A stretch of DNA of 64,000 nucleotides from Candidatus Aenigmatarchaeota archaeon (GTDB taxonomy: Archaea; Aenigmatarchaeota; Aenigmatarchaeia; QMZP01). The notes under the pieces are model-generated. The model was given only the letters and a program-made list of their open reading frames with translations. It was not told the DNA's origin and ran no database searches. The position numbers were made by a program, and so were the translations under genes. Position 1 is the stretch's first letter; each line of letters opens with the position of its first letter. This document shows, one piece after another, positions 56,533 to 64,000 of this stretch. Location of the stretch: positions 1-64,000 of the forward strand of contig JBDRSV010000010.1 in assembly GCA_043824495.1 (NCBI GenBank), given 5' to 3'.

Positions 56533-57567
56533 ATGTATGAAGATAAGCCAATAATCAAGAATTCAGAAGTCTTTACAGACGAATTTCTCCCAAACACAAT
56601 TAACCATAGAGATGGGCAAATGAAAGCAGTGAGAGATGATCTAAATCCACTTCTAAATAATAAACCAGGAAGAAGCGTGTTCATTTTCGGTGCTCCAGGG
56701 ACAGGAAAGACTTCAACATCTAAATACATAATAAATGAGCTAGCTTCACAGTCTGTTTTTACAAGTTACATAAATTGTTGGAATACGAGTTCAAGATTCA
56801 AAATATTATACACAATTCTTCAGAATTTTGGAGAATCTCTGTCTATACACACAAAAGGAACTCCAACGCATGATCTTTTAGAATTACTTAAGAAAAAAGT
56901 CCAAGAAAAACAAGCAGTGATAATCTTAGATGAAGTGGATCAATTAGAAGATGATAAAATTTTGTATGATTTAATTATGATAGCAAATGTTAGTGTAATT
57001 CTAATAGCTAATTCAGAAACAGCATTACATGACAATGATCCTAGAATAAGAAGTAGATTAGCGTCTGCAGATACAATAGAATTTCCTAAATACAAGTCAG
57101 ATGAAATAACAGAGATACTCAAAGAAAGAGCAGAACTAGGTCTAGTTCCTGGTGTTGTGAAAAATGCACAACTAGAGAAAATAGCAGAGAGATCTTTAGG
57201 TGATTCTAGAATTGCAATTAATATTCTTAAAATAGCTTCGGAAGAAGCTGAGAAAAAAGATGAAGGAAAAATAACCGATGATGACGTAGAGAAAGCTTCT
57301 CCAAAAGCGATAGAACAAGGAAAGAAAAAGAGTATAGAAACATTGAATGATCACCAGAAATTGATATACTCTGTAATTAGTATGGGTGTCAAAACAGAAC
57401 CTTCTGAACTATACACAAAATATCAAGAAGAGTGTAAAAGAAAAGATATAGAACCTGTGAAAGACAGAACAATCAGAAAATATTTAGACAAAATGATACA
57501 ATATAAGTTAATTCTAGCTGAAGGCGAAGCTCGTTGGAGAACTTATTCTATCCAGAAAGCGCAATAA
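56533..57567 (+). CDS. cdc6: Orc1/Cdc6 replication initiator AAA+ ATPase
   Basis: GAPGTGKTS, YINC, LDEVDQL and DPRIRSRL motifs, C-terminal wHTH. Confidence 0.93.
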   Translation: MYEDKPIIKNSEVFTDEFLPNTINHRDGQMKAVRDDLNPLLNNKPGRSVFIFGAPGTGKTSTSKYIINELASQSVFTSYINCWNTSSRFKILYTILQNFGESLSIHTKGTPTHDLLELLKKKVQEKQAVIILDEVDQLEDDKILYDLIMIANVSVILIANSETALHDNDPRIRSRLASADTIEFPKYKSDEITEILKERAELGLVPGVVKNAQLEKIAERSLGDSRIAINILKIASEEAEKKDEGKITDDDVEKASPKAIEQGKKKSIETLNDHQKLIYSVISMGVKTEPSELYTKYQEECKRKDIEPVKDRTIRKYLDKMIQYKLILAEGEARWRTYSIQKAQ

Positions 57568-57570
57568 ACT

Positions 57571-57640
57571 CTTATTGGCACGAGTATCTAAACCACATCA
57601 ATAGAGCTTATTGGCATACTGGCATACTGGCACGGTCCTA
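57571..57640 (+). promoter_or_regulatory. Two copies of the TTATTGGCA-(TACTGGCA)n-CG motif upstream of the dead recombinase
   Basis: CTTATTGGCACG at 57571 (n=0) and 57607-57640 (n=2), then TTTATAT at 57649. Confidence 0.6.
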
Positions 57641-57685
57641 GGATCCAGTTTATATCTGATGAAAATCTACTCTAAAGTGATCCCT

Positions 57686-58423
57686 ATGCGTCTAGTACCC
57701 CAACTCTTAGATAAAATCGAACCCTTCGTTGATGAATTTAGGCAGTGGCCTAAAGGAGACATTCCTTCTTCCAAAGAAGGTAAGTGGCTTCAAGTTCAAA
57801 TGTCTCAATTCACACCACCTTTTGTCATTGAGAAGAATTATGAAAATAGTTTCATATCTTCTTCACATGTGGTAGATACAGAATTACTTGATGCTACCTT
57901 GAAGAGAAAAACAAATCTTCTCTCCAAGCAAGAAATAAGAATACTTATTGGTTCAACAAAAAACTTGAAACATAAAATATTATTACAACTATTGTATGGT
58001 TGTGGTCTTCAGATATTCGAAGCTATTGAGCTAAAGATAGATGACATCAACCTGAAAGAGTGTAGAGTCAACGTAGGAACGAGAACAGTTCCTTTATCAA
58101 CAAAAATGGTTCCACAACTGGAATTCTTGTTTAGATACACACAAAAACCAGATAATAATCACCTGTTTCCCAACTGGAACGGAGGTCACGTAACACCAGA
58201 AGATGCAGAACAGATCGTGAAATATGCATTCGCTGCTGCTGGGTTGAGACCAGTTTCCCCACACGCTCTTAGACACAGCTTTGCTTCACACCTCCTCGAA
58301 TACGGCGTCAGAATAGGAATAATACAAACACTTCTAGGAAATTATGATGCAACAAAAATGAGACACATGAAAATTTCAGAAGAAATGATCAAGAACGTGA
58401 AGAGTCCTCTGGATAAACTTTAA
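57686..58423 (+). CDS. Catalytically inactive tyrosine-recombinase paralogue
   Basis: GLQ replaces GLR, GKGxK loop deleted, LLGN replaces LLGH, no nucleophile Tyr. HALRHS and KSPLD retained. Start could be 57659. Confidence 0.85.
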   Translation: MRLVPQLLDKIEPFVDEFRQWPKGDIPSSKEGKWLQVQMSQFTPPFVIEKNYENSFISSSHVVDTELLDATLKRKTNLLSKQEIRILIGSTKNLKHKILLQLLYGCGLQIFEAIELKIDDINLKECRVNVGTRTVPLSTKMVPQLEFLFRYTQKPDNNHLFPNWNGGHVTPEDAEQIVKYAFAAAGLRPVSPHALRHSFASHLLEYGVRIGIIQTLLGNYDATKMRHMKISEEMIKNVKSPLDKL

Positions 58424-58430
58424 TTTTCAT

Positions 58431-58649
58431 ATGAGTCACAAAATCATAAGATATAGCAAACATACCATTAGAAGAAAATTAGAAAGAAACATTTCAGAAG
58501 AAGAGATAGAAGAAACAATCAGAAACCCTAATTATGTTTTATCTTCATTTGAAGAAAGAAAAATAGCTGTTAAACAAATAGCAGAAAGAACTATTCATGT
58601 AATCTACAATGAGGAAAAAACCCATATAAATATAATAACCGTATATTAA
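58431..58649 (+). CDS. DUF4258-like putative toxin
   Basis: YSKH..R..ER.ISEEEIEETI..P...IITVY pattern. Confidence 0.8.
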   Translation: MSHKIIRYSKHTIRRKLERNISEEEIEETIRNPNYVLSSFEERKIAVKQIAERTIHVIYNEEKTHINIITVY

Positions 58650-58656
58650 ATGTAAT

Positions 58657-58863
58657 ATGAAAATGACATATGACAAAGAGGTGGATGCAGCATACATTTA
58701 CCTAAAAGACACAATAAAAAAAGGCGAAGTAAAAAGCACACAAACCATGAACGAAAACATCATCCTAGACTTCGACAAAGATAAAAAACTCATCGGAATC
58801 GAAATTCTTTCTGCAAGTAAAGTAATACCCAAAAAGTCAGTAAAAGCACTACAAACAGCCTAG
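58657..58863 (+). CDS. DUF2283-like putative antitoxin
   Basis: YDKEVDAAYI...IILDFD....LIGIEIL.AS pattern. Confidence 0.88.
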   Translation: MKMTYDKEVDAAYIYLKDTIKKGEVKSTQTMNENIILDFDKDKKLIGIEILSASKVIPKKSVKALQTA

Positions 58864-58883: not shown

Positions 58884-59720
58884 ATGAAAGAACTCTTAAT
58901 ACGCTTGGAAAATGAACTAAAATCTCGCGGCTTCAGCAGAAAGACCGTAAAATCCTATTTATTTCACGTTTCAACTTTCTTGCGTCACATATCAACAGAT
59001 TCCACACAAGAAGAGATACAAAGATATTTCATACAATTAGCAGAAAACGCAGATCCCAGAACAGTTAATCTGCGCATAAGCGCAGTTAAATTCTTTTACA
59101 AGAACATCCTACACAGAAACCTCTACATAAACTACATGAAGAGACCCAGAAAAATACCTGAAGTTTTAACTGTACAAGAAGTCATGTATATGATATCGTC
59201 CACGACTAACCCAAAACACAGAACTATAATTGAAATGTTATACGGCTGTGGACTCCGGGTATCAGAAATAACTAAAATAAAAAAATCTGACATAAACATT
59301 CCAGAAAGAATAATATTCATAAGACAAGGAAAGGGAATGAAAGACAGAATTGTTCCTCTTCCTCTTACACTAAAAGAGATTGTATATAATTTCAGTGTAG
59401 ACGACTGTCCATATGTTTTCCAATCAGAAAGAGGAGGAAAGCTAACGGAAAAAACAATACAGGTGATAGTGAAAAATGCAGCCAAGAAAGCCGAAATAAA
59501 AAAGCGCGTATCTCCACATACTCTCCGTCACAGCTATGCAACCCATCTCCTCGAATCAGGAACAGATATTCGTATAATTCAACGTCTTCTAGGTCATTCC
59601 TCGGTCAAAACCACAGAACTCTATACTCATGTTTCAAGAGCTCTTCTGAAAAACATAAAAAGTCCTCTAGACTTCGTAAAAACATTCAATATAGAACATT
59701 CTAATCCAAACAATGCGTAG
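58884..59720 (+). CDS. Xer/IntI-like tyrosine recombinase (intact) without the IntI-specific insertion
   Basis: N-terminal SAM-like ELKSRGFSRKTVKSY. GLRVSE, GKGMKD, HTLRH and LLGH...TTELY all present. Short YVFQSERGGKL segment where IntI carries its extra domain. Confidence 0.93.
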   Translation: MKELLIRLENELKSRGFSRKTVKSYLFHVSTFLRHISTDSTQEEIQRYFIQLAENADPRTVNLRISAVKFFYKNILHRNLYINYMKRPRKIPEVLTVQEVMYMISSTTNPKHRTIIEMLYGCGLRVSEITKIKKSDINIPERIIFIRQGKGMKDRIVPLPLTLKEIVYNFSVDDCPYVFQSERGGKLTEKTIQVIVKNAAKKAEIKKRVSPHTLRHSYATHLLESGTDIRIIQRLLGHSSVKTTELYTHVSRALLKNIKSPLDFVKTFNIEHSNPNNA

Positions 59721-59737
59721 AAACACTAGTTATAAGA
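59716..59737 (+). other. attI-like site (core GTTATAA at 59729-59735)
   Basis: GTTATAAGA pairs perfectly with TCTTATAAC at 61685-61693. No upstream R''/L'' arm found. Confidence 0.7.
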
Positions 59738-59791
59738 AATCGTTGGTCTTGATTGGTTAAAGGAGATCGCCGCCATTTGGCTTCGCCAAAG
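59729..59791 (+). repeat. Cassette leader repeat, copy 1
   Basis: Identical to 63578-63630 apart from a 10-nt insertion. Contains TAAAGGAGATCGCCGCC and the hairpin TTTGGC-TTC-GCCAAA. Confidence 0.9.
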
Positions 59792-59923
59792 ATAGCCTGC
59801 CTTCGGCAGTATATAGAAAGGGTATTCTTTGTTTTCGAGGACATAGGGAAGTAGTACTCATAAATGGGCATAATAAAGATTAAAAATAACACAACACCTA
59901 TATACTACTAAGGGATTGATAAT

Positions 59924-60845
59924 ATGAATCAAATAGAAATTAATAGAGAAAATCTTGAAAAGAGACTTAAGCAAGTAGGGCTTAGTTCAGATATATACAG
60001 CGTCAAACCAAAAAAATTTATTAGAATTAATACGAGACATCCAGTGAAAATAAGAGAATTACAGGAAAGACTTAATAGAAATTATGGAATCGAAGTAGAA
60101 TTTATAGAAACATGTATTGAGGAAATTTATGAATCAACAAACTCGGATATTGGAGGGTGGATTAGTGGTAAAAAGAACGAATTCTTTAATAAAAATTATT
60201 TTATTCAAGATTTAGCAAGCGTTATTTGTGTTAAAGAACTTGATTTAAAAGAGGGTCAATCTCTTCTTGAAACATGTGCAGCGAGAGGTTTCAAGTCTAT
60301 TCTGGCTCATGATTTAACACATGGAAAATTAAGAATAACAGCATTAGATATAGATCCTAAAAAAATATCAAATAATGATGGGATTCTTTAAAAAATTTGG
60401 AATAAATGCAGAAACCCGATTAATGGATTCCACAAAATTTCAAGGTCAAAAATACGATAGAGTACTGGTTGATGCTCCTTGTTCTGGTGAAGGTGTGACT
60501 GTGGTGTATGATGAGAAATTGAGAAGAGATGTTAGTGGATTTGATAATGTTGTGCAATATTCACAAGAAGATGTTGAAAGATTTTCAGAATTACAAGGAA
60601 AACTTTTACAAAGCGGTTTTGACCACTTAAAGAAGAGTGGAATCCTAAATTACGCCACCTGTACCTTGAATAAGATTGAAAATGAAAGCGTAATCCACGA
60701 ATTTCTTCAAAGAAACGGCGATGCTTCAGTTGTTAACTCTAATATTGATAAATATGGTATCAAGCACAAGGTTTCTAATCTAGGGGTAAGAATCTTGCCT
60801 GGAAAAACTAAGGGCTTTTACTTTACAAAAATTATAAGGAGATAA
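59924..60845 (+). pseudogene. RsmB/NOP2 RNA m5C methyltransferase split by a +1 frameshift in an A7 run (60359-60365)
   Basis: ORF1 has motif I-like ETCAARGFKS. ORF2 has VDAPCSG and YATCT. Removing one A gives ...DPKKYQIMMGFF... Confidence 0.85.
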
Positions 60846-60877
60846 TCTTCAAAAGAAGACAAAGAATCTATCACCGA

Positions 60878-61210
60878 TTACCTTGTCCTAAAACCAAACC
60901 TTTTTTCATAATTCTTGTGGTCTAGCCATTCTAGAATAATTGCGATGACTTCAATCTTGTCCCTTCCAAGAGAGTATAATAATCTCCACCCATTTGGTAA
61001 ATCATACTTCCAGAGATTGTCTATTCCATATTTCTTGATATATTCCTTTGGAATCAGTTTTTGTTTTATATGAATGAAAGCATTCGGATTCTTCTCAATT
61101 TCCTTAAAGGCGTTGCTTATACTATCATATAACCATTTCTCTCCAGGAGAATCCTTAAGATTGTCATACGCCTTCTTCACATTTTCGTCTGCGAAAACTA
61201 ATCGTGTCAT
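60878..61210 (-). CDS. RelE-like putative toxin
   Basis: NLWKYDLPNGWRLLY motif, translationally coupled to the upstream gene. Confidence 0.75.
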   Translation of the reverse strand: MTRLVFADENVKKAYDNLKDSPGEKWLYDSISNAFKEIEKNPNAFIHIKQKLIPKEYIKKYGIDNLWKYDLPNGWRLLYSLGRDKIEVIAIILEWLDHKNYEKRFGFRTR

Positions 61211-61485
61211 TTAATCAACAGATGTGGTTTACTCATGTACTTCTTTACAAGTTCTGGATTCCAAATCCAAACTACATGTCCTTCTTTGTCTGTGACAATC
61301 TTACCTGAATCCATAAGGTAATCGAAAACTACACAGAATGTTTGGTACATCATTTTCTTTGGGAGATGTTCCCAAAGCTGCCTTTTCTTGTACTCTCCAC
61401 TGTTATTTTTGATAAACTTCTCTACCATAAGTACAGTATCCAACTGTGGATAATGCAAAATTCCTTTCTCCATTAATTGTGGCAT
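61207..61485 (-). CDS. Putative antitoxin (winged-helix-like)
   Basis: Small gene upstream of the RelE-like gene, with a palindrome over its promoter. Confidence 0.65.
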   Translation of the reverse strand: MPQLMEKGILHYPQLDTVLMVEKFIKNNSGEYKKRQLWEHLPKKMMYQTFCVVFDYLMDSGKIVTDKEGHVVWIWNPELVKKYMSKPHLLIK

Positions 61486-61493
61486 AAAATCAC

Positions 61494-61519
61494 CTTGTTA
61501 TATATATTTATATAACAAG
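61494..61519. promoter_or_regulatory. Perfect 11-bp palindrome over the TA promoter
   Basis: CTTGTTATATA-TATT-TATATAACAAG. Confidence 0.75.
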
Positions 61520-61578
61520 TATTTATAAAGGTTTCGGTTGAGCCTAAAACATATCATAAGACAAAGAATCTCGTCCGC

Positions 61579-61595
61579 GGCGGCGATCTCCTTTA
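61579..61595 (-). repeat. Inverted copy of the 17-bp leader motif
   Basis: GGCGGCGATCTCCTTTA is the reverse complement of 59758-59774 and 63597-63613. Confidence 0.9.
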
Positions 61596-61795
61596 TTAGT
61601 TATGTGCACAACGACTCTGCGGCTGCTTCGCAGCCTTGCCTCGCATGGCGAAACCATTTCAGAATAGGAGAAATCCATGCTCGGTCTTATAACAAGCAGC
61701 TTGGCGGTTCGCTGCTGCTCTCCCAAATTCGATCTTTGCTATGAAGGCGGTCTCTTAAAACTAAAACATTTATAAACTGGATACAAATTATTGTT

Positions 61796-61993
61796 ATGAG
61801 CGAATTGAAGATGCATGGAAAACACCAAACTCAATGGGTTACTATATCCCTTGATGAATATGAGAGCATGAAGGCTACTCTCGAGATTTTATCTAGCCCT
61901 AAGGCGATGGAGAAAATTAGACGCGGTGAACAGGAAAGACTAGCTGGAAAGGGGCAGAAACTAGAAGATGTGAAGAAAGAACTTGGAATTTAG
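61796..61993 (+). CDS. Phd/YefM-RelB-like antitoxin
   Basis: ISLDEYESMKATLEILSSP..M..I motif. Confidence 0.8.
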   Translation: MSELKMHGKHQTQWVTISLDEYESMKATLEILSSPKAMEKIRRGEQERLAGKGQKLEDVKKELGI

Positions 61994-62244
61994 AAATCAT
62001 CTTTATGTAATATAGTATCTATTTGAACTAATTTCTCTTTTTCAATGATTACGTAGATGATTCTCCATCGCTTTTCAAATCTTAATTCCCACTTTCCCAC
62101 CAGAGGCCATCTTAGTGGCTTACCATAAATATCTGGATATTCCTTTAACTTTTCAATTTTCTTGAAAAATCGTCTTTGCATTTCTGCATCAAATTTCTTC
62201 AGATCCTTCTTGGCCTCTGGCATTATCTCGATATCATAACTCAT
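61990..62244 (-). CDS. RelE/ParE-family toxin
   Basis: GKPLR..L.G.WELRF...WRIIY motif. Confidence 0.9.
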   Translation of the reverse strand: MSYDIEIMPEAKKDLKKFDAEMQRRFFKKIEKLKEYPDIYGKPLRWPLVGKWELRFEKRWRIIYVIIEKEKLVQIDTILHKDDF

Positions 62245-62328
62245 GAAATATAATTAAATTCTATACTAATAAATCGGCCGCCCTTTAAAAGACCGGACTT
62301 TGCCAACCTGCTGATGTTAAATAACATA

Positions 62329-62883
62329 TTACTCGGCAGACCGCATTTTGAATTCAGAATCTAAAATACTCATTATCAAATCATTGTAAAACTTCCCATC
62401 TATATAGGCGTTGTCTCTGAGAATCCCATCCACCTTGAAGCCGCATTTTTTATAAGCGGCAATTGCTCTTTTATTGAAATCTAAGACAACTAAGCTGATT
62501 TTATGGAGTTTTAATTGTATAAATCCGAATTTTAGAATGCAATTAATTGCATCGGTTCCATATCCCTTTCCGAAATAGTCTTGAAGAATTCCTATTGCTA
62601 ATCTGACATTTTTATCTTGTTTATTGATTTGATGGAGACGACAACTTCCAATATATTTGTTATCTGATTTTTTGATGATAGCAAATGACAATTCCGATTT
62701 CTGAGCAATTGCCTCTTTGAATCTTTCTTTTACTTTATTTAGTGGGGTAGGTTTCCATTTCTTTGAGCCTCCACACATTATAGTGAATTCTTTGCTTTCT
62801 CTTGTCTTTGCAAAATCTTTGAAATCGGATTCATGTAACTGTCTGATATAAACATTATCCCCATTAATTTTTGGAAGTTTCAT
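62329..62883 (-). CDS. RimJ/RimL-type GNAT acetyltransferase (cassette 62317-62988)
   Basis: YFGKGYGT..I, N.RAIAAYKKCGF..DG motifs. Confidence 0.92.
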   Translation of the reverse strand: MKLPKINGDNVYIRQLHESDFKDFAKTRESKEFTIMCGGSKKWKPTPLNKVKERFKEAIAQKSELSFAIIKKSDNKYIGSCRLHQINKQDKNVRLAIGILQDYFGKGYGTDAINCILKFGFIQLKLHKISLVVLDFNKRAIAAYKKCGFKVDGILRDNAYIDGKFYNDLIMSILDSEFKMRSAE

Positions 62884-62981
62884 GTATTTTAGTGGATTTT
62901 AGAGGTTATATGATTAACGGTCTGCCTCCGTCATACGCTTCGTCGCTTCGCTCCTCGGTCTCAAACCAAGGTTTTCGACTT

Positions 62982-63064
62982 ATTTAACAGAAGTTTAAAG
63001 GTTCCGCTACGCTGCACCCACATTTTTTCTAAAAGAAAAACGTCTTATAACCCTAACGTTAAGT
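62982..63064 (+). other. attC-like site 2 (83 nt)
   Basis: ATTTAAC-AGAAG-TTTAAA-GG ... TTTTTCT/AGAAAAA hairpin ... TC-TTATAA-CCCTAAC-GTTAAGT. Confidence 0.8.
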
Positions 63065-63111
63065 GAAATTGCTACGAGCAAATTTAAATGTCTATTCTCT
63101 TTACATTAATT

Positions 63112-63522
63112 ATGGTTGATTTTATCAGAAAGAAATCCGAAAAGCCCACATTTTCACAGAAAGGGCTTGATGGATATCAATTTCTTTTAGAAAACAAGAA
63201 TGTAGAAGTATATTTCGTGGACGTGAAAATGGGGCATGATAATTACATTATTAGTAAAAAAATTACTCACATCTATTTTGTTATAGAAGGCGAAGGATTT
63301 TTCGATATAAGCGGAACTAAATTTGATGTTAAACTTGGAGATTTCATAGAAGTTCCGCCAAATAAGGAATATTGTTATTCAGGAAAAATGAAATTGTTAC
63401 TTATCATGAACCCGCCGTGGTTTGAAGGAAACGAAGAGATTACTAAGAAAAATCTTCTGTTGAATAGTTTGCCCTCCGCAACTCTCCCTTCGGTCGTCAC
63501 GGATCACTTAACAAAAGATTAA
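63112..63522 (+). CDS. Cupin-domain protein (cassette 63059-63512)
   Basis: H.YFVIEGEG.F.I.G...GDFIEVPPN cupin motifs. Reads into the att site; stop lies in the L'' arm. Confidence 0.85.
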   Translation: MVDFIRKKSEKPTFSQKGLDGYQFLLENKNVEVYFVDVKMGHDNYIISKKITHIYFVIEGEGFFDISGTKFDVKLGDFIEVPPNKEYCYSGKMKLLLIMNPPWFEGNEEITKKNLLLNSLPSATLPSVVTDHLTKD

Positions 63523-63584
63523 GACACTCACTACGTTCGTCCTAATTTCCTAAAGGAAACTAGTCTTAACCTCGAATGTTATAA
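63506..63584 (+). other. attC-like site 3 (79 nt)
   Basis: ACTTAAC-AAAAG-ATTAAG-AC ... TTTCC/GGAAA hairpin ... GT-CTTAAC-CTCGAAT-GTTATAA. Confidence 0.85.
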
Positions 63585-63630
63585 GAAATCGTTGGTTAAA
63601 GGAGATCGCCGCCATTTGGCTTCGCCAAAG
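63578..63630 (+). repeat. Cassette leader repeat, copy 2
   Basis: GTTATAAGAAATCGTTGGTTAAAGGAGATCGCCGCCATTTGGCTTCGCCAAAG. Confidence 0.9.
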
Positions 63631-63669
63631 AGGTTTAATATAAATATGAATTAAAACAAAGTTTAATTT

Positions 63670-64000
63670 ATGAGTTGGAAATACAAAGTGCTTCAGCATA
63701 AGAATTTACTCTCCGTTCTTATGATAGTAGCGGTTGTTGTGATCAGTGGATGTACAACTCAACTCGAACCTACACCAACACCAGAACCAATTCCTACTCC
63801 AGAACCGGCACCTGAACCAGAAATTATAAATCAAAAACAAGTTACTTTAGCAAATGGAGTTATTGAAGCAAATAGCCTATTTGCATCAGATATTTATGAT
63901 AAATACAAATCAGAAGATGGAAATCTATTTTTCTCACCTTATAGTATTTCATCTGCACTGTCAATGACTTATGAGGGAGCAAAAGGACAAACAGCAGAAG
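63670..64000 (+). CDS. Serpin lipoprotein (3' truncated by window edge)
   Basis: Read manually: ISGC lipobox, PTPEP linker, NLFFSPYSISSALSMTYEGAKGQTAE serpin motif. Confidence 0.92.
   Translation, partial: MSWKYKVLQHKNLLSVLMIVAVVVISGCTTQLEPTPTPEPIPTPEPAPEPEIINQKQVTLANGVIEANSLFASDIYDKYKSEDGNLFFSPYSISSALSMTYEGAKGQTAE

Follow-up and report, generated by a model that had tools for sequence, protein, structure and literature searches.

The cassette array and its integrase

The DNA analysed here (the window) comprises the initial 64 kb of a contig of 106 kb, from a 1.01-Mb assembly of 35% G+C and approximately 80% completeness. The subject is an array of gene cassettes near the end of this window, together with the tyrosine recombinase gene (hereafter the integrase) that lies directly beside it. 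The host would be a DPANN archaeon, judging by homologue records named Pacearchaeota, Woesearchaeota, Nanoarchaeota or DPANN. The results given below make it probable that the locus is a chromosomal integron-type gene-capture array of this archaeon, run by the adjacent recombinase, which lacks I2, the insertion specific to integron integrases (IntI). The integrase and the units of the array are as follows.

58884 to 59720, forward strand: intact tyrosine recombinase gene (278 aa) that belongs to the XerA/IntI superclade and lacks the IntI-specific insertion (Pfam PF00589 and PF13495).
59713 to 59740, forward strand: simple attI-like site that overlaps the integrase gene at its end, GTAGAAAC-ACTA-G/TTATAAGAAAT (from the sequence; same format in relatives).
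59729 to 61693, forward strand: cassette 1, with R boxes matching at 9/9 positions and a cassette-specific outer stem of 17 exact nt; its R'' box, TCTTATAAC, is at 61685 to 61693.
61685 to 62327, forward strand: expanded attC no. 1 (by comparison of the sequence with the family consensus; weak covariance-model match at its 5' half, L001 3685-3805, 12.1 bits).
62316 to 62988, forward strand: cassette 2, bounded by GTTAAATAA and TTATTTAAC; outer stem GGCAGACCG, 9 exact pairs.
62980 to 63069, forward strand: compact attC no. 2 (covariance model R1, 59.6 bits, whole-genome E 6.7e-9).
63058 to 63512, forward strand: cassette 3, bounded by GTTAAGTGA and TCACTTAAC.
63504 to 63589, forward strand: compact attC no. 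3, TCACTTAAC-AAAAG-ATTAAGAC...GTCTTAAC-CTCGAAT-GTTATAAGAAAT (model R1, 52.1 bits, E 2.6e-7).
63578 to 64000, forward strand: last unit, opening with a partial copy of the leader of cassette 1 (leader E; 63578-63631, with a 10-nt deletion).

The coordinates of the integrase and of the array in a first-pass annotation of this DNA were borne out, as were the start of the array 9 nt past the integrase stop codon (TAG, 59718-59720), where box GTTATAAGA begins at 59729, and the presence of three segments with perfect 9-bp inverted ends. The paired 9-mers are GTTATAAGA at 59729 and TCTTATAAC at 61685, GTTAAATAA at 62316 and TTATTTAAC at 62980, and GTTAAGTGA at 63058 and TCACTTAAC at 63504. With sites at 61685, 62980 and 63504, the array has the two or more attC sites within 4 kb of each other that the definition of an integron asks for. 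The IntI-specific domain that the same definition includes was found neither in the window integrase nor in any homologue from the 61 genomes scanned, i.e., the genome of the window (G000) and 60 relatives of the same order.

Class of the integrase

The I2 insertion is the feature by which integron integrases are defined and searched, and the I2 helix of IntI contacts extrahelical bases of the folded site. The window enzyme consists of Phage_integrase (PF00589, 3.8e-40) and SAM_4 (PF13495) domains with an intact R-K-H-R-H-Y active site, the residues of which (R125, K150, H212, R215, H238 and Y247) were invariant across 19 aligned homologues. Its score with the NCBI XerA model NF040815 (XerA_Arch), a family named 'site-specific tyrosine recombinase/integron integrase' at NCBI, was 225.8 bits, above the cut-off of 220, whereas its score with the NCBI IntI model TIGR02249 was 208.6 bits, below the cut-off of 265, and the latter alignment was split into two stretches. 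Residues 172-240 of VchIntIA were answered by only 24 residues of the window enzyme (162-185), and the short YVFQSERGGKL region was confirmed. In agreement with the first-pass annotation, which had read this region as Xer-like, no I2 insertion was found. XerA of Pyrococcus aligned colinearly with the integrase, and the best match among solved structures was Pyrococcus abyssi XerA (PDB 4A8E, E 3.7e-46). The spacing between the catalytic Lys and the HxLRH motif was 63 residues in the window enzyme and 62-68 with relatives included, as opposed to 106-107 in five true IntIs, one of them IntI1.

A search of the 61 genomes with TIGR02249 gave no match that reached the cut-off and no canonical IntI, and every match skipped model positions from approximately 181 to 236. 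The tree proposed in the first-pass annotation, of XerA, XerC/XerD and IntI, was built with XerC, XerD and IntI and has no XerA reference among its taxa. In this quick maximum-likelihood tree, the backbone of which is weak, XerC and XerD of Escherichia coli separated with full support, I2-bearing IntIs formed one clade nested among I2-less proteins and array-linked DPANN enzymes formed two supported clades.

Cassette boundaries and structure of the attC sites

Sixteen compact sites from 10 genomes, including the two of the window, were aligned and used to build covariance model R1. The sites share a plan that runs from R'' (N5-TAAC) through a 3-6-nt spacer, L'', a first hairpin, CCCAAAT, a second hairpin, ACTTC, L' and a 5-8-nt spacer to R' (GTTA-N5-AAT), and compensatory changes were noted in 9 of the 12 pairs of the L stem. 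Over the whole 1.01-Mb genome, the model found only two compact sites, both in the window array, and in relatives it recovered new, untrained sites within arrays. An Rfam search returned nothing relevant. Inverted repeats of 9 bp are by themselves not significant in 5 kb, where dozens are expected. The simple motif AAC-N3-8-GTTA-N5-AAT occurred 36 times in the genome as compared with 39-54 times in shuffled sequence, and is thus unusable alone. On the evidence of the covariance model, the covariation of the L stem and the boundary rule described next, the junctions are integron-type attC sites.

With crossover between G and TT in the R' box, the start of a cassette pairs with the R'' box of its own attC. 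This pattern was evident from the matching of R boxes, which averaged 6.1/9 for the two boxes of one site (21 sites) and 8.2/9 for the two boxes of one cassette (20 pairs, several mis-parsed). At the five variable R positions, mean agreement across arrays was 4.30 within a cassette, 2.38 within a site and 2.17 for all boxes against all, the few low values within cassettes being due to the parsing of two sites. All three window cassettes matched at 9/9 positions. The claims of the first-pass annotation that the core boxes of one foldback differ while those of one cassette agree, and that this is the signature of G/TT crossover, were thus upheld, and the sites have the R''-L''...L'-R' architecture expected of attC.

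Pairing specific to each cassette also extended beyond the R boxes. The first 12-17 bases after R' and the adjoining AA paired with a segment located 40-60 nt upstream of R'', with a median of 13 exact pairs as opposed to a mean of 6.2 for mismatched cassettes. The complete site is accordingly enlarged: the opening bases of the cassette and this upstream segment form an outer stem of approximately 13 bp, one or two small hairpins lie between it and the R stem, and the R stem is followed by an asymmetric unpaired spacer (3-6 nt on one side and 5-8 nt on the other), the 12-bp L stem and two terminal hairpins split by the conserved CCCAAAT.

As placed in the array, the window sites folded no better than shuffled sequences (z -0.8 to +0.6). 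This result first suggested a chance origin, which was set aside because junctions made in silico by joining a cassette's own ends folded well; the signal is missing in array context because the R' box found there is a hybrid. Rejoining gave a much more stable multi-helix fold, with a change, for example, from -25.4 to -45.5 kcal/mol. The z-scores of rejoined junctions ranged from -5 to -11.7 in relatives; those of the window sites were -2.2 to -3.6. For attC no. 2, in which L'' and L' match imperfectly, the values were -2.2 (top strand) and -3.6 (bottom strand) as compared with -0.7 in the array; for attC no. 3 they were -2.6 and -3.4 as compared with -0.7. Bottom strands folded slightly better than top strands. 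The substrate of the enzyme would be folded single-stranded DNA.

The same observations bear on the possibility that an ordinary XerA resolvase acts here at a dif-like box and that double-stranded modules hijack it at duplex sites, in the manner of integrative mobile elements exploiting Xer (IMEX) and pdif modules. The pdif modules of Acinetobacter plasmids and IMEX are small modules of accessory genes, including toxin-antitoxin pairs, with inversely oriented Xer-type sites. Each R-L pair of the array does resemble a duplex simple site, AAC-N4-8-GTT, and some of the supposed loops hold whole genes (61748-62295 in the window; approximately 740 nt in locus L013). Several relatives carry a dif-like palindrome in the interval from the integrase gene to the first box. 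XerA, which like the window enzyme represents a single-recombinase system, is the best match of that enzyme among solved structures, and the enzyme scores above the NF040815 cut-off. The sites of Xer modules are, however, duplexes with conserved arms, whereas the arms of the AAC-N-GTT boxes in these arrays vary and covary from cassette to cassette, which the IMEX/pdif model does not predict, and follow the integron boundary rule. Covariation of R, L and outer stems specific to each cassette argues for recognition through base pairing rather than fixed protein-binding arms, and stability of the fold depends on rejoining a cassette's own ends. Moreover, occurrence of the gene within the order is patchy, the closed genome G032 yielded no copy, and the gene stands beside a cassette array, not a lone dif. 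Published archaeal dif sites, with inverted arms of 11 bp around a 6-bp spacer, are not next to xerA (Cortez 2010, PMC2958812); no dif of this form was seen at the window attI, which has no 11-bp inverted arms. Exploitation of Xer/dif by the cassettes is considered improbable.

The attI-like site and cassette turnover

In relatives, a GTTA-N5-AAT box of the same kind as that in the window accompanied the integrase homologue, either right after the stop codon where gene and array were co-directional or upstream of the gene where they were divergent. Two NCBI assemblies (loci L125 and L126) carried identical copies of a homologous integrase, 62% identical to that of the window, and shared 11,043 nt with 3 mismatches up to attI box GTTAGTTTCAAT, right past which they were wholly unrelated. 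Their first cassettes differed, and each had its own outer stem and a matching GAAACTAAC at its end. Another independent contig, L127, stopped at ...CTAGTTA. The first-pass annotation had looked to related genomes for changes in cassette order and for conserved foldbacks: foldbacks were conserved, and in this pair gene content changed exactly at the attI box. This divergence, seen at a homologous locus and not in the window genome, is what replacement of cassettes at attI would leave.

In the mechanism proposed, a recombinase of the XerA/IntI superclade without I2 would act on two sites, recombining the folded attC-type site carried by circular cassettes with the attI-like site located where its own gene ends. 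The strands would be exchanged at the G/TT step of the R' box, so that every cassette would begin with TTA-N5 pairing with the R'' at its own far end.

Distribution among related genomes

Homologues of the integrase, 41-51% identical, were noted across the order in many genomes, often lying at the ends of contigs, and further NCBI assemblies contained homologues of 61-62% identity (overall range 41-63%) beside arrays in many genera. A full-length integrase was present in 25 of the 60 relatives. The gene was not found in the closed one-contig genome G032, in G002 (6 contigs) or in G010, the incompleteness of other genomes limiting the comparison; such patchy occurrence fits an accessory rather than a housekeeping role. 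Sites matching the covariance model occurred in 33 of the 61 genomes. Among the 60 relatives, they occurred in 18 of the 25 with a full-length integrase and in 14 of the 35 without, and the best-assembled genomes without the gene were also without sites. This co-occurrence is only consistent with linkage, the genomes being related and incomplete. The array of G058 is an especially clear case, in which the integrase gene is followed by a TTTAAT-AGTT-GTTATAAGAAAT box and, in the stretch examined, by six sites of approximately 95-140 nt; one gene lies between each site and the next (GNAT, NUDIX, GmrSD and others).

The arrays might instead be clusters of attC sites lacking an integrase (CALINs) that are served in trans by a canonical, I2-bearing IntI, either unassembled or foreign, with the Xer-like gene a bystander. 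The incomplete assemblies (80% for G000) leave room for such an enzyme, attC sites do occur in genomes and on contigs with no detected integrase and bacterial IntI1 was shown to recombine 8 of 9 archaeal attC sites (Ghaly 2022, PMC9668308). As opposed to this, matches to the IntI model above its cut-off were found in 0 of 61 genomes, the I2-less gene directly adjoined attI and an array in at least 20 loci that represent two clades and two orientations (co-directional and divergent), and the replacement of cassettes described above begins exactly at the box beside the I2-less gene. Service in trans is very improbable, even more so than exploitation of Xer/dif.

Outside the order, a covariance-model search of 80 loci with integrase homologues (987 kb; mostly bacterial, five DPANN archaeal) gave one match (L046), and no claim is made for the same attC family in bacteria or the candidate phyla radiation (CPR). 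In three loci of CPR bacteria (Patescibacteria; L033, L036 and L110), where the same model did not find the archaeal attC family, a dif-like palindrome, e.g., CTATACGAA-N5-TTCGTATAG, lies just 5' of a homologous recombinase. The Patescibacteria homologues were approximately 39-43% identical and often at contig ends.

Condition of the window array

The contents of the cassettes and of attC no. 1 are as follows.

59729 to 59835: leader E of cassette 1, 107 nt.
59924 to 60845: RsmB/F-like methyltransferase of cassette 1, frameshifted into two overlapping frames (Pfam).
60878 to 61485, reverse strand: two-gene module of cassette 1.
61579 to 61595: outer-stem partner of cassette 1, pairing with 59758 to 59774 and followed by a hairpin-rich stretch and then R''.
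61685 to 62324: parts of attC no. 1, namely R'' 61685-61693, L'' 61695-61705, CCCAAAT 61722-61728, L' 62302-62312 and R' GTTAAATAA 62316-62324.
61796 to 61993, forward strand: Phd-like open reading frame (ORF) within hairpin 2 of attC no. 1; its Pfam score is below cut-off.
61990 to 62244, reverse strand: ParE-like ORF (Pfam), inside the same hairpin.
62329 to 62883, reverse strand: GNAT acetyltransferase of cassette 2 (Pfam).
63088 to 63522: cupin-like ORF of cassette 3, a weak Pfam match below cut-off.
63670 to 64977 of the contig, running past the window end: serpin gene of the last unit (Pfam).

The description of this cargo as cassette-like in the first-pass annotation was supported by Pfam matches for the methyltransferase, ParE-like, GNAT and serpin genes, and the Phd-like and cupin assignments reached only scores below cut-off. 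In attC no. 1, both the 5' and the 3' half are normal, L'' and L' match at 10 of 11 positions, and an inner stem of 12 nt (61748-61759 with 62284-62295) closes the second hairpin. Within it (61748-62295), between intact L'' and L' boxes, the Phd-like and ParE-like ORFs converge with a 4-nt overlap. A reverse ORF was likewise noted in L013, in an insert of approximately 740 nt inside an attC, approximately 480-1230 nt past the integrase stop.

Some of these features would fit an array that is an inactive relic, with sites and integrase real in origin and cassettes no longer moving. Thus, the window sites fold weakly, the methyltransferase is frameshifted while an intact paralogue (39-44% identical) is present at C29:20393-21187 (C10 being the contig of the window and C4, C8, C13 and C29 other contigs of G000), the L''/L' pair of attC no. 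2 is imperfect, no recognisable attC was found downstream of the serpin gene with the covariance model and a dead integrase paralogue lies nearby. The integrase itself, however, has all six catalytic residues and an open frame, and the three R'/R'' pairs still match at 9/9 positions. A relic is somewhat unlikely, although less so than either alternative above, and the array is probably still active. The frameshifted methyltransferase, modest folding, gene-bearing attC no. 1 and missing attC after the serpin gene suggest partial decay.

Several observations weigh against assigning the array to an integron run by its neighbouring enzyme. The window's own sites fold only modestly. The loop of attC no. 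1, which exceeds 500 nt and carries genes, would be hard to fold as single-stranded DNA, and with one cargo gene frameshifted and a last unit without attC this particular array may be decaying. The enzyme passes the XerA equivalog cut-off, its closest solved relative is Pyrococcus XerA and no second XerA-type gene was found in the 80%-complete G000 assembly, so that it may have a housekeeping Xer role in this genome. Sites of attC type also occur in relatives with no detected full-length integrase, as counted above, and on other contigs. Finally, recombination by the adjacent enzyme is what its position would suggest, and adjacency alone is no proof of catalysis.

The array also shows several repeats. 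A 13-nt direct repeat, AGACAAAGAATCT, at 60856-60868 and 61561-61573 flanks the reverse two-gene module, which looks as if it had been inserted into cassette 1. The module recurs beside integrase homologues in L025 and L119 and at C8:29689-30245, and was the only part of the window cassettes found in other arrays. Leader E occurs in three copies in the genome: the full copy at 59729-59835, a copy at C4:29600-29706 (L004 14600-14706), 96% identical and behind a degenerate attC 3' half, and the shortened copy at 63578-63631 before the serpin gene, so that the first cassette and the last unit both begin with this leader (54 nt in the latter). A homologue in another genus (L018 2415-2524) also comes after attI, and the first hairpin of the leader keeps its pairing through 3 compensatory changes. 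An integrated element with the 54-nt direct repeat (59729 and 63578) as attL and attR was considered and rejected, as was a miniature inverted-repeat transposable element or other terminal-inverted-repeat element, since the repeat does not enclose the integrase and the cassette rule is followed at the internal junctions.

Comparison with known systems

Sedentary chromosomal integrons of bacteria (VchIntIA of Vibrio cholerae with its repeats, VCR/attC) and class 1 integrons (IntI1/attI1/attC) resemble the present system in having a tyrosine recombinase by attI followed by small, mostly promoterless-looking cassettes, and in R''-L''...L'-R' attC boxes, G/TT crossover, toxin-antitoxin cassettes and a C-terminal SPLD motif. 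Unlike theirs, the window enzyme has a gap in place of VchIntIA residues 172-240, and the archaeal site is approximately twice as large as a bacterial attC, to which it adds an outer stem, 5' hairpins and the conserved loops CCCAAAT and ACTTC. Cassettes, moreover, can be multi-genic (2-4 kb in L123 and L125) and genes can sit inside an attC hairpin.

Recombination of folded single-stranded DNA by enzymes without I2 has a precedent in the attP(+) of CTX phage, which is integrated by XerCD at dif1. That case concerns one phage genome at dif, as opposed to an array of covarying attC sites.

Integrons have been reported from 75 archaeal genomes that were assembled from metagenomes (Ghaly 2022, PMC9668308). 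In that study only IntIs with the IntI-specific domain were accepted, of which six were found, and the rows of its Data S1 consulted for Pacearchaeales and Woesearchaeales list attC sites with zero IntIs (CALINs). It also describes attI immediately downstream of intI and attC sites that are alike within a genome and within an order. The present array agrees with these in its phylum (Nanoarchaeota), in the Pacearchaeales and Woesearchaeales attC clusters and in the position of attI next to the integrase; it differs in the adjacent I2-less recombinase, proposed here as the integrase missing from such arrays. Integrase-less archaeal arrays being already in print, what is new is limited to the identity of the integrase and to the enlarged structure of the site, and a literature search found no description linking archaeal cassette arrays to an I2-less recombinase.

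Should true attC arrays be run by an enzyme without I2, standard tools would miss the integrase and report integrase-less arrays, as published for this phylum, and the pairing may explain why most reported archaeal arrays appear to be of that kind. The I2 helix would then not be universally needed for recombination of folded sites. A wider proposal, which we put forward tentatively and rate somewhat short of an even chance, is that the integrases missing from archaeal CALINs are recombinases of the XerA/IntI superclade that lack I2 and recognise an enlarged folded attC with five helices, and that canonical IntI is a later offshoot that gained I2, so that these systems would show the origin of integrons from Xer-type recombination. 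That origin would become testable with a concrete pair of enzyme and site, for which the enlarged site (outer stem, extra hairpins and hairpin-nested genes) and the two strains that differ at attI are direct substrates.

Neighbourhood of the array

Upstream of the integrase, three further features were noted.

56533 to 57567, forward strand: short Orc1/Cdc6-like AAA+ gene, 344 aa (Pfam AAA_22, Cdc6_lid and Cdc6_C), neighbouring the integron platform.
57611 to 58423, forward strand: catalytically dead paralogue of the integrase (BLASTP, 39% identity over 174 aa).
58431 to 58863, forward strand: toxin-antitoxin-like DUF4258 and DUF2283 gene pair (Pfam PF14076 and PF10049), between the two recombinase genes.

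In the paralogue, which has the same orientation as the integrase, the first catalytic Arg is changed to Gln (GLQ), the Lys hairpin is deleted, the second His is changed to Asn and the Tyr is lost. The frame is still open, and the HxLRHS helix is retained together with the KSPLD tail; its NF040815 score was only 101 bits.

The Orc1/Cdc6-like gene agrees with the placement of the array beside cdc6 in the first-pass annotation. A second, longer Orc1/Cdc6 gene is present at C13:17491-18489. A short gene of this kind lies immediately 5' of the integrase in at least three genera (the window; L013 243-1292; L022 165-1181), and in relatives direct repeats of the TAGCGGAA type separate the two genes. 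The Cdc6-like neighbour, the direct repeats and the longer second copy suggest that the array may lie at a replication origin or in an old replicon. A few kb beyond the window, the same contig carries a reverse-transcriptase (RVT_1) ORF and a LAGLIDADG-like ORF (L001 15164-16051, corresponding to C10 73164-74051).

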